Below are positions 902 to 60,082 of a stretch of 64,000 nucleotides of DNA, piece by piece (within the stretch, counting starts at the first letter, position 1; the number at the start of each line of letters is the position of its first letter). The position numbers and the translations under genes were made by a program. Location of the stretch: NCBI GenBank assembly GCA_947628895.1, contig CANRBS010000001.1, positions 5,783 through 69,782 of the forward strand, in the 5' to 3' direction. This DNA is from an uncultured Bacilli bacterium. Lineage in GTDB: Bacteria > Bacillota_I > Bacilli_A > RF39 > UBA660. The notes beneath the pieces are model-generated. The model did no database searches and was not told where the DNA came from. It was given only the letters and a program-made list of their open reading frames with translations.

Positions 902-2394
902 TATTTTCCTCCTTCTAAATTAAGTATATATGGATAATCCATACTTCCATCTCCACTTATTACTTTTACGGTTTTTGAAATTGTGATTACTGGTCTTACA
1001 ACAGCCTCAGTTGATACTTTACTTTCAATAATTACATTATTATTTACTAAAAAATTATATGCGGCACTTCCATTATAATATGCAGGAGTAAGAGTCCAAT
1101 ATGAATCATTAAAGTTCAAAAAACTATCATCTTTAAATACATCAAATCCAGCATTTATAAGTTCATTTTTAGTAATTAAAGCAATTGGATAATTTAGTAC
1201 TTTACTACCATATTCACTATTTACTGTAAGTCTATCATTTATATTATGGCATTCATAACTAATTTTATCATTATTCATTTCATAATAACCTGTATTGTTA
1301 TTTGCAAATCCAAGAGTACCATAAAGTACTCTATTATATGTAAATTCTTTAGTTTTTCTATTACTACAATAAATTGTATCACTTGTAATATAATCTTTAT
1401 ATTCACTTAAATTCTCTTTAAAATAATTTTCTAAATAAGTTTTAATATCACTTGAAGATGTATTATTATGTTCAAGTTTATAATCAAGACTACTAACTGT
1501 TCCATACATAAAGCCAACATAAGCATTAGAATTAGATTTACTATTAAATACACTACTAAGAGATGAATCTATGCTACATACATCATTTTCATATTTACCA
1601 CTATATATAAGTCTTATTCCTCTATCCATTGTAGTTCTTATTATTTTATAACAATTATTTCCTAAAACTACGGTATTTTTTAAATCTTTACTTCCCCTAT
1701 AAAAATAAATAATTCCACCATTTATACTATTATTTGTATAATAAACACCACTATTATTTATATCATTTAAATCAATATTATTAATTGAATCTATAACACT
1801 ATTTTCAATAAGTTTTCCAAGTGAATCTTTAGTATAAATATCTTCACCAACATTAATATTAGAAGATGGTACTATATTTATATTTGAAGAAAAAGTTTTA
1901 TTCATATTATTACTTTGATCTTTATCAGTTTTAAGAAAAGTAATAATCATTTTATAAGAATGTGTAGATCCTTTTTTTAATTTTATATTGCTAGCTATTA
2001 ATTCATCACTTGTAGGAATTATACTTTCACTTCTACTAGCACCTAAACCATTTTCTTCATAAATAGAATAAACCAAATCATCTGGATTTGCAAAATTATT
2101 TACTACATTTTCAAGTTTTATATCATAATATATATCATAGTCACCTTTATTTTTAACTGTAAATGATTTCGTGATACTATCTCCAGTATAACCATCTACC
2201 ATAGTAACATTACTTGTATCTGTAAATACAACAGCTGCATTCCCATCAAATGTATTTATATTGATTTTATTACTTTCACCAAATACATTAACTGAAAAAT
2301 ATGCATAAGTACAAAATAGCATAAATATTGAGATTAATATAATTCCAATACTTGCAAGTAACATACTTAATTTATAATTATTCATAATTCTCAA
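901..2394 (-). CDS. N-terminally anchored or secreted Asn-rich protein with a TasA/camelysin-type (SipW-cognate-like) N-terminus and a conserved C-terminal RPVITIS motif
   Basis: The N-terminal TM segment is followed by TYAYFSVNVFGESNKININTFDG, which resembles T[FY]A[FY]FSD.E.S.NN.F.AGTLDL. The C-terminus is VRPVITISK. A paralogue lies at 49805..51106. Confidence 0.35.
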   Translation of the reverse strand: MRIMNNYKLSMLLASIGIILISIFMLFCTYAYFSVNVFGESNKININTFDGNAAVVFTDTSNVTMVDGYTGDSITKSFTVKNKGDYDIYYDIKLENVVNNFANPDDLVYSIYEENGLGASRSESIIPTSDELIASNIKLKKGSTHSYKMIITFLKTDKDQSNNMNKTFSSNINIVPSSNINVGEDIYTKDSLGKLIENSVIDSINNIDLNDINNSGVYYTNNSINGGIIYFYRGSKDLKNTVVLGNNCYKIIRTTMDRGIRLIYSGKYENDVCSIDSSLSSVFNSKSNSNAYVGFMYGTVSSLDYKLEHNNTSSSDIKTYLENYFKENLSEYKDYITSDTIYCSNRKTKEFTYNRVLYGTLGFANNNTGYYEMNNDKISYECHNINDRLTVNSEYGSKVLNYPIALITKNELINAGFDVFKDDSFLNFNDSYWTLTPAYYNGSAAYNFLVNNNVIIESKVSTEAVVRPVITISKTVKVISGDGSMDYPYILNLEGGK

Positions 2395-2533
2395 ATCCTT
2401 TATATATTATAAACTATTAGTTTTTTCTTATTCTAAAACCTATCATAATTATATAATTAATAAGTATTTTTTTCAATAAAAATTGAAATAATTACATTAA
2501 TTTGGTAAAATACTCGTGAAGGAGAAAAGAGTT

Positions 2534-3085
2534 ATGTTAAAGGAAAAAGATATACTTGATGAAAGAAAGTCAAAAATATTAAGGAAAAAAAGTGTTGATG
2601 TAACTTTTCCAATGAGCGAAGATGATATTGCTTTAATTAATGAAATGGTTATGTATTTAAGACTTAGCCAAGATGAAGAATATGCAAATAAAAACAATAT
2701 TAGAGCTGGTATGGGACTTTCTGCTGTACAACTTGGAAAATTAAAAAGATTTTTTGTTATTTCATATAAAAAAGATGATGGTACTTTTGAAGAATATAAA
2801 GTTGTTAATCCTAAAATAATATCTAATTCAACTGAATTAATATATGTAGAAGAAGGAGAAGGATGTTTAAGTGTAAATAGATATGTTGAAGGTATAGTTC
2901 CAAGATATGCAAGAGTTACTATTGAATATTATGATGAATTTGGAAATAAAAAAGAAGTTAGAGTTCGTGAAGAAATAGCTGTTGCCTTCCAACATGAAAT
3001 AGATCATTTAAATGGTATTTTGTTTTTAGATAGAATAGATCCAAAAGATCCATACAAAAATAAAGATAATATGAGAAGTATATAA
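2534..3085 (+). CDS. def: peptide deformylase
   Basis: The GMGLSAVQLG, EGCLS and QHEIDHLNG motifs are present. The RBS AAGGAG (2519..2524) lies 9 nt before the ATG at 2534; the ORF track begins at the upstream GTG. Confidence 0.9.
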   Translation: MLKEKDILDERKSKILRKKSVDVTFPMSEDDIALINEMVMYLRLSQDEEYANKNNIRAGMGLSAVQLGKLKRFFVISYKKDDGTFEEYKVVNPKIISNSTELIYVEEGEGCLSVNRYVEGIVPRYARVTIEYYDEFGNKKEVRVREEIAVAFQHEIDHLNGILFLDRIDPKDPYKNKDNMRSI

Positions 3086-3168
3086 AGTGTAAATGAATTA
3101 AAAATAAAAAAGTATTTGTTTACTTTTTTTTTATTTTACTTTATAATTAATATAGGTGAAATAATATT

Positions 3169-4080
3169 ATGGAAAAAGGATATTTAAAAAGGTTAATTTT
3201 TTGGGGTGTTATTTGGATTTTAGTTGTAGCTGCTGCTGCAAGTGGAATGTATATGTATTATAATGGATATGGTGAAAGTGGTAAAATAAGACAAAAATTA
3301 TTGCCAATAGTAAACCAATTTAATAATTTAGATTACATATTACAATTAAAAAATAATAATAATATTGAAGTAAAAGCTAAAATAGATCAAAATAAAATAG
3401 TTATTACTTATACAACAGTTGGAAGTGAATCAAAATTTGACTTTACTTATTCAAAAGAAAATGATATGGAAATACTTACAAATAAATATAATACAAGTGA
3501 TTCAGTTTCAGGTGAAATTATTTCAAGAGGAATGATTGATGCTGTATATATAGTAAATGCAGGTGAAGGAAGTTTATTTGATACATATCAAATTAATGAC
3601 TTTACTAAAACAACTATAGAACAAGGAGTAAATATTAAAACTGGTAACGATATAGAAATACAAATTAATTTAAATACTAATATATTAGAAAACCTACAAA
3701 ATGTTGATATAAATGATAACGATTTAACTGATTATATTTTAGAAAATGACTTAATTAATATGACAGAAGATTTAACAACTAAAAATAGATATGACATAAG
3801 TAAAAAAGCAATAAAAATAATTGTTATTAATGGAGCTGAGAATTATCAAATATATGCTGAAAATACTGATAGTGAAATAAATGATAATTTATATTTTTCA
3901 GTAATGAATATAATAAAATTATTAAATAATGATGTATATAAAACAATTGAAACAAATGAAGATAAATTAATCGCAAATAATAAAACATCAACATATGAAG
4001 TTGTTATAAATGCAGAGGTTGATATTGAAAATACATTCAATGAAGATAGTTCAATATTAGAAGTAATAATAAATAAATAA
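3169..4080 (+). CDS. hypothetical membrane-anchored protein
   Basis: The 303-aa ORF has one N-terminal TM helix (LIFWGVIWILVVAAAASGMY) and an Asn/Asp-rich extracytoplasmic part. An AGGTGA RBS precedes it. Confidence 0.5.
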   Translation: MEKGYLKRLIFWGVIWILVVAAAASGMYMYYNGYGESGKIRQKLLPIVNQFNNLDYILQLKNNNNIEVKAKIDQNKIVITYTTVGSESKFDFTYSKENDMEILTNKYNTSDSVSGEIISRGMIDAVYIVNAGEGSLFDTYQINDFTKTTIEQGVNIKTGNDIEIQINLNTNILENLQNVDINDNDLTDYILENDLINMTEDLTTKNRYDISKKAIKIIVINGAENYQIYAENTDSEINDNLYFSVMNIIKLLNNDVYKTIETNEDKLIANNKTSTYEVVINAEVDIENTFNEDSSILEVIINK

Positions 4081-4108: not shown

Positions 4109-7034
4109 TTTCTAATTTTACACTAACTATTTTACTAACTCCACTCTCTTGCATTGTAATACCATATAATTTATCTAAATATTCCATTGTTTTCTTTTTA
4201 TGAGTTATTATTAATAATTGTGTTTTATTTTTATAATTCTCTAAATATTCTCCAAATACAGTTGCATTATTTTCATCAAGAGCTGATTCTACTTCATCAA
4301 GTATTACAAATGGGACTCTTTCTAAATTCATAATTGAGAACAATAAACTAATTGCTGTCATAGTTTTCTCTCCACCAGAAAGTAAACTTAATGGTTTTTG
4401 ATTCTTTCCAGGAGGCACCGCGATAATATCAATACCAGTTTCTAGTATATTATCAGGTTCTGTTAATTCTAAATGAGCAGAACCACCTTTAAATAATGTT
4501 TTAAATACTTTTCCAAATTCTACATTAATATTTTCAAATGTTTCTTTAAATTTATCAATCATCACTGCATCCATATCATTTATAATATTTAGTAAATCTT
4601 TTTCACTATTTTCTAAATCTTCTTTTTGTTTAGTTAAAAAATTTACTCTTTTTGATATTCTTTCAAATTCTTCAATAGAACCTAAATTTACTTCACCTAA
4701 TGATTTAATTTTCTTTCTTAATGTAGATACTTTTTCCCTTGCTATATCTTCATCAATCTCAAGTAAATATTCTTTTTTAGCTCTTTCATAACCTAAACTA
4801 TAATCTTCACTTAATCTAGTAAGTAAACTTTCTAAATTTATATTTAATTTAGTTATATTAATTTCTAATTTATTGATTTCACTATTTAAATTATTATATT
4901 CATTATTTTGTTTTTTAATAGAAGACTCTAAATCTGTAAGTGTACTATTTAAATCTAATTTTTCTTTATTATATATTTCTAAAGTCTTTTCTAATTCTAT
5001 TTTCTTTTGTTCATGTTTATAATACTCATCAATAACTTTATCTAATTCTTTATCAAGTGATTTATCTGATAAATTATTAATTTCATTTTTTACCATTTCA
5101 TATTCACTATTAGTAGTTTCATATAAATGTTGTTTACTTTTAATACTTTCTTCATTTTTAATATTTTCTATATTAAGTTTATAGATATTATCATTTATAA
5201 TTCTTAAATCACTTTCTACTTTTTGATGTTTTTCTTCTAATACTTTTATTTCATCACTAGTATTATCTACTGAAGATTTTAATTTTTCAAGTTCATATTT
5301 ATCAGAAATATATGAGTTATTTGTTTTTAAGCTACCACCAGTCATACTTCCACCAACATGAATAAGTTCGCCATCTAATGATATTACTCTATATCTATGA
5401 TTTATTTTTTTACTTATAATAGTTGCTGTAGATAGATTACTAGATACTATTATATTACCAAGTTGATTCATTATAATATTGTAATATTTTGAGTCATAAC
5501 TAACTAGTTCACTAGCAATACCAATATAACCTGTAATGTTACGAACTATATTTAAAGTTTCTGGATCAATACTTTTTGCTTTTATTACATTAAGTGGGAA
5601 AAAAGTAGCTCTTCCTTTATTATGTCTTTTTAAATAATCAATTGCTTCTTTTGCACATTCTTCATCATCAGTAATTATATTATTTGAAGATGCTCCAAGT
5701 GCTACATCTAACATAGTTACATATTCTTCTTTTGTGTCTATTACATTTCCAAGAATGTTATGTATACCTCTAAGTGTTGGACAGTCAAGTACGGTTCTTA
5801 CACTATAAGGAATTTTATTTAATGAAGAAATATTTGCTTCTAATACATCTATTTTATTTTTAATATCAAATAATTTTTTTCTTTTAATATTTAAATCATA
5901 ATTTATTTTTTCAAGTTCTTTATTTACATCATTATAATCATTAGTATATGAAAGTATTTTGTTTTTTAAATTTTCTTTTGTTTCATTACAAATTTTAATA
6001 TCAGATAATATTTCTGTAAGATTATTTTTAATTAAACCTTCTCTATCTTTTAAATTAATTAAATTTTCTTTAACAATATTACTCTCTTTATCATATTTAT
6101 TTCTCTCAGTCATTAAAGTCTTTTTATTACTTAAATCCATAAGGCTTTCATTTATTTTAAAAATTTCATTACTAGTAGATTTAATTTTCTCATCTATATT
6201 TAATATTTTAACTTTAATTTTTTCTACTTCAGTATTATCTTCTGTATTAGATGAATTAAGTTTTGATAATTCTTCTTCTAATGAAAGTTTCTTTTTAGTA
6301 CTATTTTCAAGTTCATTACTATAAGTAGTAATATCTTTAGCAATTAAAGCTATTTCAACACTTTCAAGCTCATTTAAAGCATTTTTGTATTCTACTGCCT
6401 TATGTGCTTCTTCTTCAAGTGGAATTAAGTTTTCACTATTTTCACTAATAATTAAACTTATTCTATCTATATTTTCATGAGTTTTAGATAATTTTGATAA
6501 TGTTTCTTCTTTTCTTTTCTTATATTTTAATACACCAGCTGCATCTTCAAATATAACTCTTCTATCTTCTGGTTTTTCACTCAATATTTGATCTATTTTA
6601 TTTTGAGGAATAATATTAAATGATTCTTTACTAGACATAGAATCTAAAAATAAATTAGTTATATCTTTTAGTCTACATTTATCATTATTTATATAATACT
6701 CGTTTTCACCTGTTCTATAAACTACTCTTTTAATTGAAACTTCACTATAATCTATATTTAATGTCCTATCAGTATTATCAAACACAATAGCAACACTTGC
6801 AAAGTTAGCAGACGGTCTAGAAGTAGAACCACTAAATATAACATCACTCATATTATTACTTCCACGCAAAGACTTGATACTTTGTTCTCCAAGTACCCAT
6901 TTAATAGCATCAACTATATTACTTTTACCACTTCCATTAGGACCAACAATACCTGTGAATGTAGGATCTAGTTCAATAGTCATTTTATCTGCAAAACTTT
7001 TAAATCCATGAATTTTAATTTCTTTTATATACAT
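4104..7034 (-). CDS. smc: chromosome segregation protein SMC
   Basis: The protein begins MYIKEIKIHGFKSF...GPNGSGKSN with a Walker A motif, has long coiled coils and a hinge, and ends with a signature motif and Walker B (LSGGEKTMTAISLLF...ILDEVESALD). The start was moved to the ATG at 7034, which follows an AGGTGA RBS. Confidence 0.9.
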   Translation of the reverse strand: MYIKEIKIHGFKSFADKMTIELDPTFTGIVGPNGSGKSNIVDAIKWVLGEQSIKSLRGSNNMSDVIFSGSTSRPSANFASVAIVFDNTDRTLNIDYSEVSIKRVVYRTGENEYYINNDKCRLKDITNLFLDSMSSKESFNIIPQNKIDQILSEKPEDRRVIFEDAAGVLKYKKRKEETLSKLSKTHENIDRISLIISENSENLIPLEEEAHKAVEYKNALNELESVEIALIAKDITTYSNELENSTKKKLSLEEELSKLNSSNTEDNTEVEKIKVKILNIDEKIKSTSNEIFKINESLMDLSNKKTLMTERNKYDKESNIVKENLINLKDREGLIKNNLTEILSDIKICNETKENLKNKILSYTNDYNDVNKELEKINYDLNIKRKKLFDIKNKIDVLEANISSLNKIPYSVRTVLDCPTLRGIHNILGNVIDTKEEYVTMLDVALGASSNNIITDDEECAKEAIDYLKRHNKGRATFFPLNVIKAKSIDPETLNIVRNITGYIGIASELVSYDSKYYNIIMNQLGNIIVSSNLSTATIISKKINHRYRVISLDGELIHVGGSMTGGSLKTNNSYISDKYELEKLKSSVDNTSDEIKVLEEKHQKVESDLRIINDNIYKLNIENIKNEESIKSKQHLYETTNSEYEMVKNEINNLSDKSLDKELDKVIDEYYKHEQKKIELEKTLEIYNKEKLDLNSTLTDLESSIKKQNNEYNNLNSEINKLEINITKLNINLESLLTRLSEDYSLGYERAKKEYLLEIDEDIAREKVSTLRKKIKSLGEVNLGSIEEFERISKRVNFLTKQKEDLENSEKDLLNIINDMDAVMIDKFKETFENINVEFGKVFKTLFKGGSAHLELTEPDNILETGIDIIAVPPGKNQKPLSLLSGGEKTMTAISLLFSIMNLERVPFVILDEVESALDENNATVFGEYLENYKNKTQLLIITHKKKTMEYLDKLYGITMQESGVSKIVSVKLEN

Positions 7035-7190: not shown

Positions 7191-7679
7191 GTGAATAGTC
7201 TTATTAAAAAAATATATATTAGAAACACTATTAAAAGTAGTTCAAAAGTTATTGAAGCAAAATTTATAAAAAAAGATGGAATAAAATATTATGTAGATGG
7301 CAAAAATGTGATATTAGATTATACAAAAAATGAATTAGAAATAGCAAAATGGTTGGTAAGTATATTAGGCGGAACAATATATTTATTACCAAGAATTAAT
7401 TATCCTGAAAATATAAAGACAGCAGATTATTTATGGAATAACGAATTTTGGGATTTGAAAGAAATTAATGGAAAAGGAAAAAATATTTTAGATAATAGAA
7501 TTAAAAATTATCAAAATCAATCAAATAATTTTATTTTAGTAATTAAAAATAATAAATTAAGCATAAAAAATATTGTACTTCAAATTAATAAAATTTATAA
7601 TTCTCCACATAGATTATGGGTAAATAAAATAATAATTATTAAAAATAGCAAATTATTAATGATAATAAAAAGAGATTGA
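7191..7679 (+). CDS. hypothetical protein with a possible PD-(D/E)xK nuclease-like core
   Basis: The 162-aa ORF uses a GTG start after an AGGAGGT RBS. The motif ...TADYLWNNEFWDLKEI (D...(D/E)xK) is present. Its 3' end lies inside the tandem repeat. Confidence 0.4.
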   Translation: MNSLIKKIYIRNTIKSSSKVIEAKFIKKDGIKYYVDGKNVILDYTKNELEIAKWLVSILGGTIYLLPRINYPENIKTADYLWNNEFWDLKEINGKGKNILDNRIKNYQNQSNNFILVIKNNKLSIKNIVLQINKIYNSPHRLWVNKIIIIKNSKLLMIIKRD

Positions 7680-7926
7680 CCCCAACCCAAGTGTGTCAGG
7701 ATAAATCTCATTAACTATAATATACAATAAATTATAAATTATGTCAATAGTAAAGTGATACTTTACTTTTACTTATAAATAAAATAATAATTATTAAAAA
7801 TAACAAATTATTAATGATAATAAAAATGAGATTGACCCCAACCCAAGTGTGTCAGGACCAATCTCATTAACTATAATATACAATAAATTATAAATTATGT
7901 CAATAGTAAAGTGATACTTTACTTTC
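7621..7926. repeat. tandem direct duplication, two units of about 155 bp at about 97% identity
   Basis: Unit 1 is 7621..7775 and unit 2 is 7776..7926. They differ by one 1-nt insertion and three substitutions. Each unit carries the GTAAAGT-GAT-ACTTTAC hairpin and an internal inverted repeat, AATGAGATT...AATCTCATT in unit 2. Confidence 0.85.
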
Positions 7927-14659: not shown

Positions 14660-15283
14660 TTAATGAGAATTATAAACCATATCTTTATATTTCTTACTAA
14701 TTCTAAATAAAGCATTTTCTACATATTTTTTATCTTTATCTAAAAGATTAGCTACTTCTTTATTATTAAGTCCACTAAGTTTTAATTCAAAAATATTTTT
14801 TTCATTTTTACTTAATTTTGATTTAACTTTTTCAAGTATTTCTTTTGTTTCTTCTTCTTTAAATATTAAATTATCGGGATCATTATTTGTATCATTTAAT
14901 ATTTCATAATAATTATAATTAGTATCATTTACTATTTTATCTAAAGGAAAAGAATTATTTAATATTCTATTTTTCATTCTAAAAGAATTTCTCATAGCAG
15001 ATATTAATGTACTTTTAATACAAGCATTAGCATAAGTATAAAAAGTTACATCTTTTTTTTCATCAAATGTATTAATAGCATGTATAAGTCCAATTAAACC
15101 TTCTTGATAAAGATCAGAGATTTCCATACCAATTACATTATATTCTTTTAAATATTCTTTTAATGTAGCTAATATACAATTCTTATATTTTTCTACTAAA
15201 ATACTTGCAGCTTCTTCATTTTGTTCTGCACATAAATAAACAAGTTCATTATCATTTAATGCTTTATAATCCATATTATTCAC
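14660..15283 (-). CDS. sigH: sigma-70 family sigma factor, SigH-like
   Basis: Region 2 reads DLYQEGLIGLIHAINTFD. A C-terminal region 4 HTH is present. The gene lies immediately downstream of rlmB, as in the B. subtilis yacO-sigH locus. Confidence 0.65.
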   Translation of the reverse strand: MNNMDYKALNDNELVYLCAEQNEEAASILVEKYKNCILATLKEYLKEYNVIGMEISDLYQEGLIGLIHAINTFDEKKDVTFYTYANACIKSTLISAMRNSFRMKNRILNNSFPLDKIVNDTNYNYYEILNDTNNDPDNLIFKEEETKEILEKVKSKLSKNEKNIFELKLSGLNNKEVANLLDKDKKYVENALFRISKKYKDMVYNSH

Positions 15284-18601: not shown

Positions 18602-18660
18602 AACATCTCCTTTCTTGATTACATTTTAACTAAATAAAATATAATATAAAATAAAGAGTT

Positions 18661-18691
18661 GGTTGAAAATAACTCAACCAAAAGTTGAGTT
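18661..18691 (-). terminator. intercistronic hairpin (weak terminator or attenuator) between the pilin-FGE gene and the oxidoreductase gene
   Basis: On the minus strand the hairpin AACTCAAC-TTTTG-GTTGAGTT is followed by AUUUUC. An overlapping alternative hairpin, GGTTGA...TCAACC, is also possible. Confidence 0.4.
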
Positions 18692-18733: not shown

Positions 18734-20473
18734 CTAATTTTTAAGAACAATCCTAGAAGTGATGCTATAATATACATCACCGGTACTTCTAGCAAAACGA
18801 AATTGACCTGCTGTTACATTATCACTATGACCACCTCCACGATCAATCCAACTATATGAAGAATCAAGAAAGAATGAATAATCTTTATACCAAGCATTTT
18901 TATAACTTCCATCACTCCAAAATGGTCCCATTTCTCCTGTTGCATCTCCAAGGATCCTATATTTATATGTTAGTTTATCACTTGATGATGAATATTTATC
19001 TAAATATTTTGTATATGTTTCATTTGATACTATATTTTTCATTCCACTAACATTTAAATCACTACCATCTCTATATGAAGCCATATATTCCCAAGATCCG
19101 CCACTCATATCATATACTCCAGTTATATTTCCTGTAGTACTTGCTAATTTTCCAGTATCTGTATTCCATAATGCATTTTCTGTTGTACTAGTAATTGCAT
19201 CTTTAGTATTAGCTGCATATCCTGTTAAAAAATTACTATTGTTATTAATTCTTACTTCATCTTTTATTCCATATTTAGAGTGTGAAAGATATGCAACTGC
19301 TCCCCACTCTGTATTTTTCATCATATGACTATCTAAGCTTCTATTAAAATTGTAAGCATTCATAAATAAATTATATACTGTTGCACCTCTCCATGAATAT
19401 ACATTAGGTTTTATTATTATATTATTAGGTTTTTCTTCATCTACTTCTGAATTTTCTTTTATCCAAGTAGATATATTTTCATCAGTTATTGGTTGTGTTG
19501 TATCACTATTTTGATTATATCCTGTTTCAAATTTTCCTACCCAAAATCCATTTGATGGTATTGATAAAAATGCTGGATGTGTCATTAAATCTCCTACTTT
19601 GCAATCTTTTGTAGCCACACTTGCTCTTGATGAACCACTTTCCATTGGTGTTATACATTCACCACTTACTTCACTTGTTGTTCTTGTTCCAAATTCTATC
19701 TCTATTTCTTTTATTTGACTTTCTGGTTGACTACTTTCTAAGCCTTCATAGTTTCCAATATTGAATATTCTATAACTATATTTTGGTATCCATACAAAAT
19801 ATGCCCTTATATCACTTTCTAATATTGTATCTCCTTCTTTATATTCTTTACTTGGAGTGTCTACTAGTATTACTGCATTTGCCCATTTCTTTGATGTATA
19901 TTTATACCATTCATCATACTCATCCGCATATGTTACTACACCTGTATCTGATAACATTATTGGTATCATTTTATCTCCTAGTACTGGGTCAGCTCCATTT
20001 AATTCACTTTCTACATATTTTGTTTTTGGTTTTTCTCCATCAATCAATTGATTTCCTTTACAATCAGTTATACTTGTCTTGGCTTCTTCTACTTTATACT
20101 TTTTACCTATGTCTTCTCTTTGTATTCCACTTGATGAAGAAGCTATTAATTCATTTGCTTCATCTCTTGCGGATATTTCTACTATCTTCCCTTTATCATT
20201 AAATTTTACTACATATAATATGTTACTTCTTCCATCTAAATTTAATACATTTGTACTACTATCAAAACATCTTATTTCTTTATTTCCAATTGAAGAAGAT
20301 ACATATTTATCTTCAGCACTTCTTATTATATTTTGTACTTCACGGGTAAATGTATTTACTTTTGCATCTCTAAACATTTTAAGTACATTTGGAAGTGCTA
20401 TAATAACTAAAATTGCTAAAATTGCTATTACTGCTAGTAACTCTACTAATGTAAATCCTTTTTTATCTTTCAT
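18734..20473 (-). CDS. modular type IV pilin: prepilin N-terminal domain fused to an FGE/SUMF1-like (C-type-lectin-fold) C-terminal domain
   Basis: The leader is MKDKKG|FTLVELLAVIAILAILVIIALPNV. A D-region disulfide (C...C) is present. The C-terminus reads ...EWGAVAYL...GVYDMSGGSWEY, resembling the FGE motif G.YDMSGNVWEW. The protein is about 80% identical to 58074..59807. Confidence 0.7.
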   Translation of the reverse strand: MKDKKGFTLVELLAVIAILAILVIIALPNVLKMFRDAKVNTFTREVQNIIRSAEDKYVSSSIGNKEIRCFDSSTNVLNLDGRSNILYVVKFNDKGKIVEISARDEANELIASSSSGIQREDIGKKYKVEEAKTSITDCKGNQLIDGEKPKTKYVESELNGADPVLGDKMIPIMLSDTGVVTYADEYDEWYKYTSKKWANAVILVDTPSKEYKEGDTILESDIRAYFVWIPKYSYRIFNIGNYEGLESSQPESQIKEIEIEFGTRTTSEVSGECITPMESGSSRASVATKDCKVGDLMTHPAFLSIPSNGFWVGKFETGYNQNSDTTQPITDENISTWIKENSEVDEEKPNNIIIKPNVYSWRGATVYNLFMNAYNFNRSLDSHMMKNTEWGAVAYLSHSKYGIKDEVRINNNSNFLTGYAANTKDAITSTTENALWNTDTGKLASTTGNITGVYDMSGGSWEYMASYRDGSDLNVSGMKNIVSNETYTKYLDKYSSSSDKLTYKYRILGDATGEMGPFWSDGSYKNAWYKDYSFFLDSSYSWIDRGGGHSDNVTAGQFRFARSTGDVYYSITSRIVLKN

Positions 20474-20505
20474 TTTTGTTACCTCTTCTCTATTTTTACC
20501 CCCTT

Positions 20506-20534
20506 ATTATATCGTATATATATATATATATCAA
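20506..20534 (-). promoter_or_regulatory. sigma-A-type promoter of the pilin-FGE gene with a (TA)8-containing 17-nt spacer
   Basis: On the sense strand the promoter reads TTGATA-(TA)n CGA-TATAAT. It is followed by a conserved leader AATAGAGAAGAGGTAACAAAAATG with a GAGG RBS. Confidence 0.5.
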
Positions 20535-20582
20535 GAGGCACCTTACTAATTTTACAAACTATTATTGCTTTTAGTTATATAA

Positions 20583-20613
20583 ATTAAAAAAAGATTACTA
20601 CACTTGTAATCTT
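20583..20613 (-). terminator. Rho-independent terminator of the XRE regulator gene
   Basis: The hairpin AAGATTAC-N7-GTAATCTT is followed by a U-run on the minus strand. It overlaps the stop codon. Confidence 0.6.
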
Positions 20614-29485: not shown

Positions 29486-32017
29486 CTATAAAAGTGATTT
29501 CTTTTTTATTTGATCTAATATATTAATAGCTTCTATTGGAGTTACTTCAAGTGGATTAATTGTATCAATATATTCTCTTAATTCATCTTTTGTATCTTCA
29601 TCAAATATAAGTTCTAATTGTTGAGCTTTTCTTTCTACTTTATTATTTTGATTTTCAAACTCTTCTAAAAGTTCATTTGCTCTTTTTATTACTGTATTTG
29701 GAAGATTTGCAAGTTTAGCAACATTTATTCCATAACTTTTATCAACAGCTCCATCTAATACTTTATGTAAGAATGTAATATCTCCACCTTCTTCAGCAAT
29801 AGTGACATGAACATTTTTAACACCAGATAATTTATTTTCCATAGCTATAAGTTCATGATAATGAGTTGAAAATAATGTTTTACATTTAATATTAGTAGCA
29901 ATATATTCAATTATAGCTCCAGCTAGTGACATACCATCATAAGTACTAGTACCCCGTCCTAACTCATCAAATAATATTAAACTATTATGAGTTGCATTTT
30001 TAAGGGCATAAGCACTTTCTTTCATTTCTACCATAAATGTAGACTCTCCACCTACTAAATCATCACTAGCTCCAATTCTTGTAAATATTTTATCAAATAT
30101 TGGAATATTACATTTCTTAGCAGGTACAAATGAACCAATTTGATTTAATATAGCAATAATACCCATTTCCCTCATATATGTAGATTTACCACTCATATTA
30201 GGTCCTGTAATAATTAATACATTAGTATTTTTATTAAGTATTACATCATTATCAATATATTCTTTTTCAATAACACTTTCTACTACTGGATGTCTTCCAC
30301 CTATTATTTCAACTATATTATTATCATTAATAGTAGGTTTTATAAAATTATTTTCTTCAGCAATAGTTGCAAATGACTGCATAACATCTAAATATGCAAT
30401 CTTACCAGATACTACTTGTAAATTAGATATGTATTTTTTTATTTCTTCTTTTATTTCACAAAATACTTCATATTCTAAATTATTAAGTTTATCTTCAGCA
30501 TTTAATATCATGTTTTCTTTTTCTTTTAAAAGTGGTGTTATGTATCTTTCACAATTAGATAATGTTTGTTTTCTTTCATATTGAAATTCATCTTTAACAT
30601 ACATTATTTGTCCTTTAGGTACTTCTATAAAATAACCAAACACTTTATTAAATCCAACTTTTAACCCTTTAATATTAGTTCTTTGTCTTTCTTCACTTTC
30701 AAAGTTAGATATAAAATCTTTACCATTAGTTTTAATACTTCTTAATTCATCAATTTCAGCATTAAAGCCTTCTTTAATTAAATTACCTTCTTTTAGAGTA
30801 ACTGGTGAATTTTCTTTAATAGATCTTTCAATTAAATCACATAACTTATCAAAAGTTTCAAGAGGCTCTAAATTAAGTTCTGCTAATATATTATTAATAT
30901 CAGGAAATACGGTTAAACTATTTTTAAGTTGTAACATATCTCTTGCATTTAATGTAGAACATGCAACTTTACCAGTTAGTCTTTCTAAATCATATATTTC
31001 ATAAAGATAACTCTTAAGTTCACTTTTAAGCATAAATTCTTTAATTAATTTTTCTACTAAATCATGTCTTTTAGTAATTTCCTTTTTATCAATAGATGGA
31101 CTTATTATATAACTTTTTAATAGTCTACTTCCCATAGCTGTTTTAGTCTTATCCATAAAACCAAGTAGACTATTTTGTCTATCTTTATTTCTCATGGTTT
31201 CAGTAAGTTCTAGGTTTCTTATACATTCTTTATTAAGTTCAAGAAACATTTTTTTATCAACTATTTCTAAATGTTGTAAATGACTTAAGTCTTGTTTCAT
31301 TGCATTGACTAAATAATTTAAAACAATAGAAGTAGTCTTAATTATTTTTTCATCTTCTATTCCATCAAATACATTATTTTTATCAAATACTTTATCTTCA
31401 TTATAATATGAAATATATATATTATAGTTTGTTTTAAATTTATATATTAATTTTTCATTAAAATTATCTTCAACTACAATTTCTTTTATATTTAAATTAA
31501 CAATTTGACTTATTAAATTTTCATCATCATGATTAATATATGTAGCATATACTTTTCCACTTAATAAATCAGCATATGATAAAACATAAGCATAAGTATA
31601 ATCTTTAATACCTGCTATAAAATTAAAGTCTTTTTCATTTACTATATCTGTATTTGTAATAGTACCAGCACTTACTATTTGTGTTACTTCTCTTTTAACT
31701 ATTCCTTTTGCTAATTTAGGATCCTCCATTTGTTCACAAATAGCTACTTTATATCCTTTTTCTATTAGTTTTTCTAAGTAAATATTAACTGCATGATATG
31801 GTACACCACACATTGGAATTTTTTCTTTAAGACCAGCTTGCTTTCCAGTTAATGTAAGTTCTAATTCATGAGATGCAGTAATAGCATCTTCAAAAAACAT
31901 TTCATAGAAATCACCTAATCTATAAAATAATATTATTCCTTCATATTCACTTTTAGTCTTTAGATATTCTCTCATCATCGGACTAACATTATTTAAATTT
32001 ACATCTTTTCTTTCCAT
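29486..32017 (-). CDS. mutS: DNA mismatch repair protein MutS
   Basis: The N-terminus reads TPMMREYLKTKSEYEGIILFYRLGDFYEMFFEDA. The Walker A motif is GPNMSGKST. The protein is 843 aa. Confidence 0.95.
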   Translation of the reverse strand: MERKDVNLNNVSPMMREYLKTKSEYEGIILFYRLGDFYEMFFEDAITASHELELTLTGKQAGLKEKIPMCGVPYHAVNIYLEKLIEKGYKVAICEQMEDPKLAKGIVKREVTQIVSAGTITNTDIVNEKDFNFIAGIKDYTYAYVLSYADLLSGKVYATYINHDDENLISQIVNLNIKEIVVEDNFNEKLIYKFKTNYNIYISYYNEDKVFDKNNVFDGIEDEKIIKTTSIVLNYLVNAMKQDLSHLQHLEIVDKKMFLELNKECIRNLELTETMRNKDRQNSLLGFMDKTKTAMGSRLLKSYIISPSIDKKEITKRHDLVEKLIKEFMLKSELKSYLYEIYDLERLTGKVACSTLNARDMLQLKNSLTVFPDINNILAELNLEPLETFDKLCDLIERSIKENSPVTLKEGNLIKEGFNAEIDELRSIKTNGKDFISNFESEERQRTNIKGLKVGFNKVFGYFIEVPKGQIMYVKDEFQYERKQTLSNCERYITPLLKEKENMILNAEDKLNNLEYEVFCEIKEEIKKYISNLQVVSGKIAYLDVMQSFATIAEENNFIKPTINDNNIVEIIGGRHPVVESVIEKEYIDNDVILNKNTNVLIITGPNMSGKSTYMREMGIIAILNQIGSFVPAKKCNIPIFDKIFTRIGASDDLVGGESTFMVEMKESAYALKNATHNSLILFDELGRGTSTYDGMSLAGAIIEYIATNIKCKTLFSTHYHELIAMENKLSGVKNVHVTIAEEGGDITFLHKVLDGAVDKSYGINVAKLANLPNTVIKRANELLEEFENQNNKVERKAQQLELIFDEDTKDELREYIDTINPLEVTPIEAINILDQIKKKSLL

Positions 32018-56112: not shown

Positions 56113-57879
56113 CTAATTTAATAATGTTATTTTTGCATAACCATTTCCAGTATGTCCAACTTCTGTTCCACCATCTGGTTTTGGCATACTCTCATTTCCA
56201 GCAATCATTTGTGTCTCTGTAAATACTTTTCCACTATAATGGTTTGGAGAGTCTAAATGCTTTATATTATTTTCTGTTGAAGTTGCTGTTATTGCTTTAC
56301 ATCCTGGGTGACCTGATATAAATGAAGATCCACCTGAACCTGATGATTTTGATCTAACATTTTGTGATTTACCACCATAATATCCGCCTCCGCCTCCACC
56401 GACACCATCTCCTGCAGCATAACCAACACCATCCATTCCTTTTCCTAAAGCATACCCACTTGTTTGACTTCCACCTAAAAGTGTATCATATAATGTTCTT
56501 GCAGAAAGTCCTCCTCCTTCGCCAACATCAAATTCCCAAGACCTTCCACCACCGCCAGCTGCAACCATTATTCTTGATTTTAAACTTTCAAAATTATCCC
56601 ATTTACCACTAGTTAGTCTTACATCAGTAGCTCCTCCGCCTCCACCAGAAGTCTCATCGTCACTACCATCAGTAGTTCCAAGACCTCCACCATTATATCC
56701 TCCTAGTGAATTTTCTCTTAAAACTGCATCTACTCCTTTACCTCCAACATAAATATATAACTCTTCATCTTTATTTAAAGTTATTTTTCCAGTTGTATAT
56801 GCTCCATTTCCGCCTTCTTTACCTCTCTTACCACTCATTAATGAGGCACCACCTTGTCCACCCCATAATTCAATTTTATATACTCCTGTTTTTGGTACTA
56901 CAAATGTCTCATAATTTCCAGTAAATGTATAATTTACTTTTGACCATATTGCATATAATGTTACTCTACCATTTTTATCACTTGTTAAATTTTTTACTAT
57001 TTCATTATTTTCATATGTTATTACTTTTGAAGTTTTATCTAATGACCAACCTACAAATTGATAACCATCTCTTGTAAAATTATTTGCAGTTAATTTTTCT
57101 TCTTTATCATATGTATGTGTTGATGAAGTTGTTTGTCCAGTTCCTTCATTTGCATTATATTCTACTGTATATGTATGAGCTTCATACTTACTTTCTAACA
57201 CAGTTGTACTATTTAATTTTGATAAATTTTCTTCTACTATATTTCCAACTTCATCAATTACTTTATCTTCAGTATTTGGTATATAATATCCTAAAAAATC
57301 ATATCCTTCTTTTTCTACTACTTTATCTAATTTTGTTATTTGAGTTGTTTTATCTTCTTTATATAATTTTCCATCATTTAAATATCCATAATTTGGAGTT
57401 GAGCCATCAAATGAGATTATTGGATATTTTGTTTCACTTCCTTGAAATATCAAACTTCCATCACAATCAAATATTATTGTTTCTTGACCTCTTTGATTTA
57501 CTTTATATGTTTTTCCTATATCTTCTTTTTTTATTCCATTTTCATTTGTAGCTATTAATTCATAAGTATTATCTACAATTTTTATTTCTGTTATTTTACC
57601 TTTATTTGATAATCTTATTAAATATACCATATCACTTCTTCCATCTAAATCTAATTTATTTTTATTACTATCAAAGCAGGTTACTCTTTTACTCCCTAAT
57701 GATAAAGATACAAACTTATTTTCTGCCTCTCTTATCATATTTTGTACTTCACTTGTAAATGTTTTTTCTGTTGAACCTTTAAATAATTTTAATACATTTG
57801 GTACTGCTATGATTACAAGTATCGCGAGTATTGCTATTACTGCTAGTAACTCTATTAATGTAAATCCTTTTTTCTTCAT
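56113..57879 (-). CDS. modular type IV pilin: prepilin domain, then a Listeria/Bacteroides flg_new repeat, then a Gly-rich C-terminal domain
   Basis: The leader is MKKKG|FTLIELLAVIAILAILVIIAVPNV. The flg_new repeat reads YTVEYNANEGTGQ...DGYQFVGWS...VTLYAIWS. The C-terminal Gly-rich domain reads VYKIELWGGQGG...LYIYVGGKG. Confidence 0.7.
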   Translation of the reverse strand: MKKKGFTLIELLAVIAILAILVIIAVPNVLKLFKGSTEKTFTSEVQNMIREAENKFVSLSLGSKRVTCFDSNKNKLDLDGRSDMVYLIRLSNKGKITEIKIVDNTYELIATNENGIKKEDIGKTYKVNQRGQETIIFDCDGSLIFQGSETKYPIISFDGSTPNYGYLNDGKLYKEDKTTQITKLDKVVEKEGYDFLGYYIPNTEDKVIDEVGNIVEENLSKLNSTTVLESKYEAHTYTVEYNANEGTGQTTSSTHTYDKEEKLTANNFTRDGYQFVGWSLDKTSKVITYENNEIVKNLTSDKNGRVTLYAIWSKVNYTFTGNYETFVVPKTGVYKIELWGGQGGASLMSGKRGKEGGNGAYTTGKITLNKDEELYIYVGGKGVDAVLRENSLGGYNGGGLGTTDGSDDETSGGGGGATDVRLTSGKWDNFESLKSRIMVAAGGGGRSWEFDVGEGGGLSARTLYDTLLGGSQTSGYALGKGMDGVGYAAGDGVGGGGGGYYGGKSQNVRSKSSGSGGSSFISGHPGCKAITATSTENNIKHLDSPNHYSGKVFTETQMIAGNESMPKPDGGTEVGHTGNGYAKITLLN

Positions 57880-57910: not shown

Positions 57911-57940
57911 ATTATATCTTATATTCTTAAGTATTATCAA
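57911..57940 (-). promoter_or_regulatory. sigma-A-type promoter of the pilin/flg_new gene
   Basis: The sense strand reads CCCCTTGATA, an 18-nt spacer, then TATAAT. The conserved leader ATAGAGAAGAGGTAATAAAATG follows. Confidence 0.4.
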
Positions 57941-58043: not shown

Positions 58044-58074
58044 ATATAAAAAAAGAAGTAAACCAGTTACTTCT
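58044..58074 (-). terminator. Rho-independent terminator of the pilin-FGE paralogue
   Basis: The hairpin AGAAGTAA-ACCAG-TTACTTCT is followed by UUUUUU on the minus strand. It overlaps the stop codon. Confidence 0.6.
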
Positions 58075-59807
58075 TAATTGGTTGGTGTAAGAACAAGACG
58101 AGAACCATTACTAGGATATGCTACACCCCTATTCCTGTCAAAGTTGAATTGACCAGTAATATATGTATTATTGTAACCACCACCACGATTAAACCAAGGC
58201 TGAGTAGAATGAACAAAATTTGAAAAGTCAGTATACCAAGTACTTTGATTATAACTACCACTACTCCAAAATGGTCCAAGCTCTCCTGTTGCATCTCCGA
58301 GGATTCTATATTTATATAACAATCTATCACTTGATTCTAAATATTTTTCTAAATATTTTGTGTATGTTTCATTTAATACTATATTTTCCATTCCACTAGC
58401 ACTTAAATCACTACCATCTCTATATGAGGCCATATATTCCCAATATCCACCACCTATATCATATATTCCACTTATATTTCCTGTTGTACTTGCTAAATGT
58501 CCTATTGATGTATTCCATTTTGAATTTTCAGTTGCACTTCCTTCTGCGTCTTTTTCATTTGCTGCATAGCCTGTTAAATAATTACTATTATTATTTATTC
58601 TTACTCCATCTTGTATTCCATATTTTGAATATGAAAGATATGCAACAGCTCCCCACTCAGTATTTTTCATCATGTGACTATCTAAGTTTCTTTTAAAATT
58701 GTAGGCACTTTGAAAAAATGTTGCAATTGTTTGATCTCTCCATGAATATACATTAGGTTTTACTATTATATTTGATGGCTTTTCTTCATCTACTTGCGCA
58801 TTTTCAGTTGTCCAAGTAGATATATCAGTATCAGTTATAGGTAAACTTGGATCTTCATTTTGATTATATCCTGTTTCAAATTTTCCTACCCAGAATCCAT
58901 TACTTGGTATACTTAAGAATGCTGGATGTGTCATTAAATCTCCTATATCACACTCCCCAGTTTCTCCACTTTCCATTGGACTTGCACATTCTTTTTTTAT
59001 TTCATCATTTACTGTTGTTCTTGTTCCAAATTCTATCTCTATTTGTTGAACACTACTTTTTTCTGGTTCACTACTTTCTAATCCTTCATAATTTCCTAAA
59101 TTGAATATTCTATAACTATATTTTGGTATCCATACAAAATATGCACGTATATCTGATTCTGCTATTACTTCCCCTTCAGTATATTTTTTACTTGGCTTGT
59201 CTACTAATATTACTGCATTTGCCCATTTCTTTTCAGTATATTTATACCACTCATCATACTCATGTGCATATGTTACTACTCCTGCATCTGATAATATTAC
59301 TGGTATCATTCCACTTCCTAGTACTGGATCAGACCCATTTAATTCACTTTCTTTGTATACTATTTTTTCTCCACTAGTTAACTCATTTCCATTACAATCT
59401 AATATTTGTGTTTTTGCTTCATTTACTTTATACTTTTTTCCTATGTCTTCCCTTTGTATTCCATTTGTATTATTTGCTATTAATTCATTTGCTTCATCTC
59501 TTGCCCTTACTTCTATTACTTTTCCTTTATCGTTAAATTTAACTATATATAATATATTACTTCTTCCATCTAAATTTAATGCATTTGTACTACTATCAAA
59601 ACATCTTACTTCTTTATTTCCAATTGAAGCAGAAATATATTTACTCTCAGCACTCTTCATTATATTTTGTACTTCACTTGTAAATGTATTAACTTTGGCA
59701 TCCCTAAACATTTTTAAAACATTTGGAAGTGCTATAATAACTAGTATTGCTAATATTGCAATTACTGCTAAAAGTTCTACTAATGTAAAAGCATTTTTAT
59801 TTTTCAT
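58074..59807 (-). CDS. modular type IV pilin with an FGE/SUMF1-like C-terminal domain (paralogue of 18734..20473)
   Basis: The leader is MKNKNA|FTLVELLAVIAILA, with Ala rather than Gly at position -1. The protein is about 80% identical to the 579-aa paralogue across the pilin domain, the central IRAYFVWIPKYSYRIF block and the C-terminal domain. Confidence 0.7.
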   Translation of the reverse strand: MKNKNAFTLVELLAVIAILAILVIIALPNVLKMFRDAKVNTFTSEVQNIMKSAESKYISASIGNKEVRCFDSSTNALNLDGRSNILYIVKFNDKGKVIEVRARDEANELIANNTNGIQREDIGKKYKVNEAKTQILDCNGNELTSGEKIVYKESELNGSDPVLGSGMIPVILSDAGVVTYAHEYDEWYKYTEKKWANAVILVDKPSKKYTEGEVIAESDIRAYFVWIPKYSYRIFNLGNYEGLESSEPEKSSVQQIEIEFGTRTTVNDEIKKECASPMESGETGECDIGDLMTHPAFLSIPSNGFWVGKFETGYNQNEDPSLPITDTDISTWTTENAQVDEEKPSNIIVKPNVYSWRDQTIATFFQSAYNFKRNLDSHMMKNTEWGAVAYLSYSKYGIQDGVRINNNSNYLTGYAANEKDAEGSATENSKWNTSIGHLASTTGNISGIYDIGGGYWEYMASYRDGSDLSASGMENIVLNETYTKYLEKYLESSDRLLYKYRILGDATGELGPFWSSGSYNQSTWYTDFSNFVHSTQPWFNRGGGYNNTYITGQFNFDRNRGVAYPSNGSRLVLTPTN

Positions 59808-59839: not shown

Positions 59840-59866
59840 ATTATATCGTATATATATATATATCAA
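59840..59866 (-). promoter_or_regulatory. sigma-A-type promoter of the pilin-FGE paralogue with a (TA)7-containing 15-nt spacer
   Basis: The architecture matches 20506..20534 but has one TA unit fewer. The spacer is therefore 15 nt rather than 17. Confidence 0.45.
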
Positions 59867-60082
59867 GAGGCACTTCAATATTTTTACATTTAAAAATCTA
59901 CATTATGTATAACATATATGTAGACTATTTTAATCAAAATGTAGGAGGAAAGACTTGCTAACCTTTCATCTCTTTTGACCATTAAGGTGTGTGGACGCAA
60001 GATATATTTTTCCACCTCTCCTACAAAAAATATTATATCAATTTTTCTTATTTTGTCAATTTTAATTATAAATTTATTCATT

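Follow-up and report, generated by a model that had tools for sequence, protein, structure and literature searches.

Most documented cases of phase variation by sequence repeats come from pathogens (Haemophilus, Neisseria, Campylobacter, Mycoplasma), and the switches known from gut commensals are mostly invertible promoters. Promoters with a homopolymer in the spacer are known as well, namely those of the Mycoplasma hyorhinis vlp genes, with poly(A), and of Neisseria meningitidis porA, opc and fetA, with poly(G/C). As for dinucleotide repeats, the hifA/hifB fimbrial promoter of Haemophilus influenzae carries (TA)9-11 (van Ham et al. 1993, via PMC2651432 and PMC7911514), and according to these two sources a change from (TA)10 to (TA)9 strongly lowers expression; PMC2651432 also describes an interrupted allele, (TA)4ATTA, in strain R2866. 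In Mycoplasma mycoides, poly-TA tracts precede the Vmm lipoprotein genes (Persson 2002, via PMC3053259) and number 10 to 16 units. The vmc genes of M. capricolum are reported to vary by slipped-strand mispairing (Wise 2006, via PMC3498834).

Two promoters with a comparable arrangement are present in the window, by which we mean the whole 64-kb stretch of DNA analysed here (24% G+C). They belong to two paralogous genes, A and B, and their features are listed below.

18734..20473, minus strand: gene A, 579 aa, prepilin-type N-terminus and large C-terminal domain (Pfam, profile and fold search)
20534..20529, minus strand: -35 hexamer TTGATA of promoter A (11/12 consensus match)
20528..20512, minus strand: spacer of promoter A, 17 nt, (TA)7 then CGA (counted from the sequence)
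20511..20506, minus strand: -10 hexamer TATAAT of promoter A (sequence and consensus scan)
20515..20531, no strand assigned: alternating TA run of locus A, uninterrupted, 17 nt or 8.5 units (TRF and run scan)
20474..20505, minus strand: short leader of gene A (read from the sequence)
20541..20556, minus strand: conserved element directly 5' of the -35 hexamer at A, TGTAAAATTAGTAAGG (alignments)
58074..59807, minus strand: gene B, 577 aa, paralogue of A (Pfam, alignment)
59866..59861, minus strand: -35 hexamer TTGATA of promoter B (read from the sequence)
59860..59846, minus strand: spacer of promoter B, 15 nt, (TA)6 then CGA (counted from the sequence)
59845..59840, minus strand: -10 hexamer TATAAT of promoter B (read from the sequence)
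59849..59863, no strand assigned: alternating TA run of locus B, uninterrupted, 15 nt or 7.5 units (sequence and run scan)

At both A and B, a surface-structure gene has a promoter whose -35 and -10 hexamers can be recognised and are separated by a perfect simple-sequence repeat. The original prediction had placed TTGATA-(TA)n-CGA-TATAAT before both genes, with a 17-nt spacer within 20506..20534 and a 15-nt spacer within 59840..59866, and direct reading of the minus strand bears this out: TTGATA-17 nt-TATAAT stands before gene A and TTGATA-15 nt-TATAAT before gene B, the spacer of promoter B being that of promoter A minus one TA unit. The run at A (TRF period 2, 8.5 copies, 100% matches) forms the spacer and extends 3 nt into the end of the -35 hexamer. 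CGA directly precedes the -10 hexamer of promoter A, where the TG of an extended -10 is absent. In the consensus scan, promoter A was the best promoter-like site in its region (11/12, spacer 17), while promoter B is missing from the list because the scan took only spacers of 16-18 nt. Transcription of gene A would start at about 20499, and its Shine-Dalgarno sequence, AGAGG, lies at 20486..20482, 8 nt ahead of the ATG (20473); the ATG of gene B is at 59807. A leader shared by both genes had also been predicted, and a leader motif, ATAGAGAAGAGGTAA, is indeed common to A, B and the third pilin-like gene of the window, but the leader of B ends in GGTAAACCAAATG and not in GGTAA(A)AAAATG.

The products of the two genes are 73% identical in amino acid sequence (81% at the DNA level), and their type IV prepilin motif, G/FTLxE followed by a hydrophobic helix, is evident: the N-terminus of A reads MKDKKG/FTLVELL, and the motif common to A and B is MK.K.(G/A)/FTLVELL. 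Pfam N_methyl is found in both (E 3e-8 in A, 8e-7 in B), a profile of the A/B family searched against the PDB matches only pilin N-termini (helices), at E down to 1.9e-9, and the AlphaFold model of A, of moderate confidence (mean pLDDT 66), contains a helix over residues 9-62. In the label 'FGE-pilin', under which the genes had been predicted, the FGE part is weak, as Pfam FGE-sulfatase (PF03781) gives 21.4 bits in A, below the 23.3 cut-off, and no match to it was found in gene B. Beyond the pilin helix, the family profile retrieves only 5vf4 from the PDB, at E 0.17. The same entry, the variable protein TaqVP of a DGR, is the best Foldseek match of the A model (E 0.023, TM 0.24-0.34), with Mtd (1yu3) at rank 14, and TaqVP has what we take to be a C-type-lectin/FGE-like fold. 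These weak profile and fold matches hint at a C-type-lectin-like ligand-binding fold for the C-terminal domain rather than at an FGE enzyme.

Assignment of the hexamers gains from a further gene of the window, which has the following features.

56113..57879: third pilin-like gene (Pfam N_methyl, Flg_new and ALK_LTK_GRD)
57911..57940, minus strand: promoter of the third pilin-like gene, CCCCTTGATA, 18-nt non-repeat spacer, TATAAT (consensus scan)

This promoter shares its hexamers and leader with A and B, while its spacer is unrelated in sequence, which supports the TTGATA/TATAAT assignment. Across the window, 10 of the 22 pairs of TTGnnn (at least 5/6) and TATAAT are spaced by 16-18 nt (P = 0.010), among them the intergenic promoters of a marR-like gene, of a skipping-rope RNA and of the third pilin-like gene, and this clustering indicates that canonical spacing matters in this organism. 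Among the near-consensus pairs that lie close to a gene, only promoter B has a non-canonical spacing. Judged from the 11/12 score, the homology with the third gene and the spacing preference, the two hexamers are the real promoter of A and B.

The elements that flank the two genes are as follows.

18681..18659, minus strand: terminator-like hairpin 3' of gene A (terminator scan)
20613..20586, minus strand: hairpin AAGATTAC..GTAATCTT followed by a T-run, 3' of the upstream HTH (XRE-type) gene (by eye)
58075..58047, minus strand: hairpin and T-run 3' of gene B (by eye)
59940..60025, minus strand: skipping-rope RNA between tuf and gene B (Rfam RF02924)
60059..60032, minus strand: perfect-consensus promoter of the skipping-rope RNA, TTGACA-16-TGnTATAAT (consensus scan)
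59926..59890, minus strand: hairpin and U-run terminating the skipping-rope RNA (RNA fold -12.1 kcal/mol, z -3.06)

The hairpin 3' of gene A makes this gene monocistronic. Since the upstream HTH gene is terminated at 20613..20586 (by a hairpin which the G+C-dependent terminator scan did not pick up), the TA promoter is the sole good promoter for gene A. An HTH gene is the upstream neighbour at locus A only; at locus B it is tuf, and between tuf and B lies the skipping-rope RNA (RF02924, 53.4 bits vs a gathering score of 36.7), a motif which is described as followed by a terminator and of unknown function (Weinberg et al. 2017, PMC5737381). Read-through from the strong promoter at 60059..60032 could contribute to expression of gene B. 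We rejected the idea that such read-through makes promoter B irrelevant, as the hairpin and U-run at 59926..59890 intervene, and promoter B is therefore at least partly insulated. Genes A and B each stand on their own, the coding sequence being flanked by its promoter and short leader on one side and a terminator on the other. Housekeeping genes of the window include tuf, fusA, rplS, lepB, ftsW, ruvAB, mutS and smc; no type IV pilus machinery was found beside A and B, whose neighbours are ruvAB, rplS, lepB, ftsW, tuf and fusA. The organism is taken as cell-walled, FtsW being encoded in the window. Elsewhere in the window, an intergenic region (7621..7925) holds a tandem duplication of a 156-nt unit (2.0 copies, 97% identical). 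Within each copy there is a G+C-richer core (GAGATTGACCCCAACCCAAGTGTGTCAGGA..AATCTC), and at its end a hairpin (GTAAAGTGATACTTTAC) and a T-run; no Rfam match at the gathering score was found for this unit.

The two tracts are exceptional in their surroundings. TA runs of at least 11 nt occur in the window only at A and B, and a first-order Markov model predicts 0.055 runs of at least 15 nt. Long A/T homopolymers, in turn, are depleted, with 2 observed vs 16.5 expected at a length of at least 9, and 0 vs 6.6 at a length of at least 10; this genome thus avoids slippery tracts, and the two TA tracts stand out. It needs to be mentioned that A and B are duplicates, the homology between them beginning sharply at GTGCCTCTTGATA, and therefore their tracts are not independent events.

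Related metagenome-assembled genomes (MAGs) contain a very large, multi-copy A/B family. Within the species-representative collection, the genomes closest to this one are MAGs of uncultured Bacilli, mostly from the gut (rabbit 'Lapin', Hadza, mouse, chicken), and the closest relatives, P0002-P0014 (NCBI MAGs), show 70-81% identity. The promoter of A and B, which we call type 1, recurs before family members in other assemblies with the core GGTGCCTCTTGATA(TA)nCGATATAATAAGG. A, B, L083 and L099 share this core of ~40 nt (GTGCC to TAAGG) letter for letter and differ in it by whole TA units alone (spacers of 17 nt in A and 15 nt in B, L083 and L099; TA runs of 15 nt in each of the last two), whereas the coding DNA of the same four genes is only 73-81% identical. 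This suggests that purifying selection has acted on the hexamers and kept the repeat pure. The -35 context found at A, CCTCTTGATA, is kept in B, L083, L099, L003 and the third pilin-like gene. Upstream of the type-1 -35 hexamer lies TGTAAAA-N2-3-(T/A)GTAAGG, aligned also in L083 (about 4312..4328) and L099 (about 2236..2252); in relatives it takes the form of a direct repeat, TGTAA-N4-TGTAA. This element is a possible UP element or activator site and, if regulatory, would suggest conventional regulation on top of the TA tract.

A second type of promoter shows the same kind of length difference, with TGCACA-16-TATAAT in L085 vs TGCACA-14-TATAAT in L081 and L082, all with identical 5' flanks. 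In silico, a change by one unit therefore crosses the 16-18-nt range in both types (17 vs 15 nt in type 1, 16 vs 14 nt in type 2). The distal TTGACT promoters of L001 and L004 have a 15-nt TA run and a 15-nt spacer, while L003 has an interrupted tract, an 18-nt spacer and TAAAAT as its -10 hexamer, and looks, from its sequence, like a fixed allele. CGA before the -10 hexamer is missing in L001, L002, L003 and L004. Within ~500 kb of related gut Bacilli loci, all ten TA runs of at least 11 nt fall in upstream modules of this family. The lengths of the long tracts are narrowly distributed (17, 15, 15, 15, 15 and 15 nt), and the tracts of L081 and L082, which represent the same gene in two samples, are equal.

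Several further observations were made in the course of these comparisons. A related rabbit-gut MAG has two tandem promoter-like modules before family genes (L002 1..115; L004 1470..1690), a distal one, TTGACT-TTCC-(AT)7.5-ATTTTCTTAGTA, and a proximal one, GGGAG(C/T)ACACC-(AT)5.5-ATT(A/T)TCTTAGTAG, and this arrangement suggests modular duplication or recombination at TA tracts. In L099 (sample ERZ27249129), the family gene behind the 15-nt-spacer promoter (2334..4041) is split by gene calling into two overlapping ORFs (233 and 346 aa); it is either a pseudogene with a frameshift or misassembled, the coverage being 3.5x. Searching JGI metagenome contigs for the pattern CTCTTGATA-N(4-34)-CGATATAATAAGG gave 11 matches, all of them due to chance and devoid of TA tracts, and the single match to a similar pattern among viral contigs was an ordinary promoter with a non-repeat spacer.

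If the tracts were variable, different lengths might be seen at one and the same locus, and counting of TA units at both loci had been proposed as a check. Contigs of the same strain from other samples were retrieved by their exact EF-Tu and L19 protein sequences (ERZ27249363, ERZ27249370, ERZ27249377 and Logan ERR10663774), and over 1.9-6.9 kb they align to the window at 100% identity, with no mismatch or gap. At the level of assembly consensus, we found no length variation of tract A in three assemblies (17 nt each in the window, L101 and L104), nor of tract B in two (15 nt each in the window and L100). TA number was seen to vary between paralogues only. The strain is clonal (five contigs, overlapping in part, add up to 19,954 nt with 0 mismatches), and as consensus sequences alone were compared, the power of this check is low; equal tract lengths are weak evidence against very frequent switching under selection and not a refutation. 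The predicted slipped-strand switch is partly supported, its spacer architecture and the comparison with other family promoters speaking for it and the unchanged consensus lengths across same-strain assemblies against it. Many contigs, of relatives and of the same strain, end within about 200 nt of these promoters (L002, L081, L082, L084, L085, L100, L101, L103 and L104), L103 stopping 1 nt before the -35 hexamer of A and L002 beginning inside a TA run. Paralogue repeats and 3-4x coverage are the likely causes, heterogeneity at the tract being a conceivable one, and for this reason contig ends are not interpretable as population heterogeneity and were not used as evidence.

What, then, may the two tracts be? 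We give roughly even odds (a probability of about 0.5) to a slipped-strand phase-variation switch of the known kind, where phase-variable stands for high-frequency reversible switching, at about 1e-5 per generation or more. A housekeeping-sigma promoter with a perfect (TA)n spacer would drive each of the two genes, and slipped-strand mispairing in replication would add or remove one TA unit, shifting the distance between -35 and -10 by 2 bp. The 17 nt at locus A are canonical and predicted to be strong, while the non-canonical 15 nt at locus B are predicted to be weak or off. In a multi-copy family, the choice of surface proteins expressed would then vary stochastically, heritably and reversibly, with most copies parked one TA unit short of ON. 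We infer that 15 nt means OFF, that slippage reaches the rate of phase variation and that it is reversible; a consensus TATAAT preceded by a G (-14) may still be active with the 15-nt spacer, even without a well-spaced -35 hexamer. In favour of a switch, the tract sits exactly in the spacer, the repeat has stayed pure, the promoters of diverged paralogues differ by whole units alone, long TA runs are restricted to this surface-protein family, and several near-consensus promoters are kept exactly one unit short of the optimal spacing. A possible, if doubtful, alternative is that these are fixed promoters of different strength, with an inherited AT-rich TA spacer that changes only over evolutionary time; the copies would then differ permanently in expression, or some would be silenced, with no high-frequency reversible switching. 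Such promoters would fit the equal tract lengths in all same-strain assemblies and in the orthologues L081 and L082, and also the recurrence of 15 nt in five of the six long tracts, which belong to different genes and genomes. The window encodes a complete MutS (29486..32017) that probably repairs part of any dinucleotide slippage, and this again favours fixed strength. The same can be said of tract length, as 7.5-8.5 units are fewer than in the proven cases, (TA)9-11 and (TA)10-16 (PMC2651432, PMC3053259). MutS, tract length and the narrow length distribution all speak against a switch. Fixed strength leaves unexplained, however, why the repeat has stayed pure despite 19-27% divergence of the coding DNA, why several near-consensus promoters are held at 15 nt, one unit from the optimum, and why the long TA runs of the clade are confined to these promoters.

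The conservation of sequence around the tract, with TGTAAAA..GTAAGG and CGA kept in A, B, L083 and L099, and the recurrence of the 15-nt length in different genes would also agree with a sequence-specific regulatory or structural element made up of the tract and its flanks (the TGTAA repeats and CGA), such as a site where a regulator or a nucleoid protein binds, or a spacer that is flexible or melts readily; a 2-bp difference would then be tolerated, or compensated by an activator. We regard this as unlikely: the third pilin-like promoter has an unrelated, non-repeat spacer of 18 nt, CGA is absent from four of the relatives, and the HTH gene accompanies A only, with tuf upstream of B. Moreover, the single-strand DNA fold (z 0.45) is not better than that of shuffled sequences. 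A cruciform or other DNA structure in the tract was rejected on the same value, which gives no sign of a stable cruciform; eight TA units are also short for cruciform extrusion. It is highly improbable that the difference between 17 and 15 nt arose from errors of assembly or sequencing in a low-complexity repeat common to paralogues. Although the relatives' contigs have a coverage of 3-4x and many stop near these promoters, independent assemblies repeat 17 nt at A and 15 nt at B with locus-specific flanks (TTAGTAAGGTGCCTCTTGA ... CGATATAATAAGGGGG at A, ATATTGAAGTGCCTCTTGA ... CGATATAATAAGGGAG at B), and a single read is much longer than a run of 15-17 nt. We considered an alternative sigma factor as well, as TACGA resembles the start of the streptococcal ComX box, but the match stops after CGA, and the hexamers, which the third pilin-like gene has as well, come close to the consensus of the housekeeping sigma. 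The window does encode a small sigma factor (14660..15283, minus strand, 207 aa, Sigma70_r2 and r4_2), directly downstream of a SpoU-type rRNA methylase, the position that sigH has in Bacillus; in this lineage, such a SigH-like sigma might regulate competence or pili.

To return to the slipped-strand switch, we extend it to the whole family only tentatively. Each paralogue, a pilin-anchored, lectin-like adhesin, would then have its own (TA)n switch, most of them one unit short of ON, and there would be combinatorial surface variation of the Vmm/Vmc type outside pathogens and Mollicutes, in cell-walled, mismatch-repair-proficient, uncultured gut Bacilli living as commensals. If the tracts do switch, a lineage of uncultured gut Bacilli with an AT-rich genome (24% G+C) would vary its pilus-displayed surface proteins by localized hypermutation, which bears on colonisation and on immune or phage evasion, and also on how metagenome assemblies of such genomes are to be read.

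How do A and B compare with the systems described so far? The hifA/hifB promoter, which the original prediction had named as precedent, is not the only close one: the (TA)n tracts of Mycoplasma mycoides Vmm (PMC3053259) are phylogenetically nearer. Both at hif and here, the promoter of a pilus or fimbrial gene has a TA repeat separating its -35 and -10 hexamers, and the organism is proficient in mismatch repair (here judged by the complete MutS); the interrupted tract of L003 also resembles the hif allele of R2866. In hif, one-unit changes alter both spacing and expression, as is predicted for A and B from their difference in spacing. Besides, hif is one bidirectional promoter serving two divergent chaperone-usher fimbria genes of a Gram-negative pathogen, while A and B have unidirectional promoters with shorter tracts (7.5-8.5 units), in a multi-copy, type-IV-pilin-like family of uncultured gut Bacilli. 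Vmm and Vmc share with A and B the (TA)n promoter tracts, the multi-gene family of surface proteins, the setting in a very AT-rich member of the Bacilli/Mollicutes, and repeat numbers that differ between copies, with combinatorial expression expected. Their tracts, however, are broadly distributed over 10-16 units, unlike the 7.5-8.5 units found here, almost all of one length, and their products are lipoproteins and not pilin-like proteins. The organism studied here also encodes MutS and has a cell wall (FtsW), unlike Mycoplasmas, which to our knowledge lack MutS/MutL. In vlp, porA, opc and fetA, a slippery tract likewise sets the -35/-10 distance of a surface-protein gene, but these tracts are mononucleotide ones, with 1-bp steps and graded expression. 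The mechanism is thus already known from hif and Vmm/Vmc, and if A and B belong there, what is new is the setting, an uncultured, cell-walled, MutS-encoding lineage of gut commensals, and the cargo, pilin-like proteins with a large and, judging from the fold model, possibly lectin-like domain.
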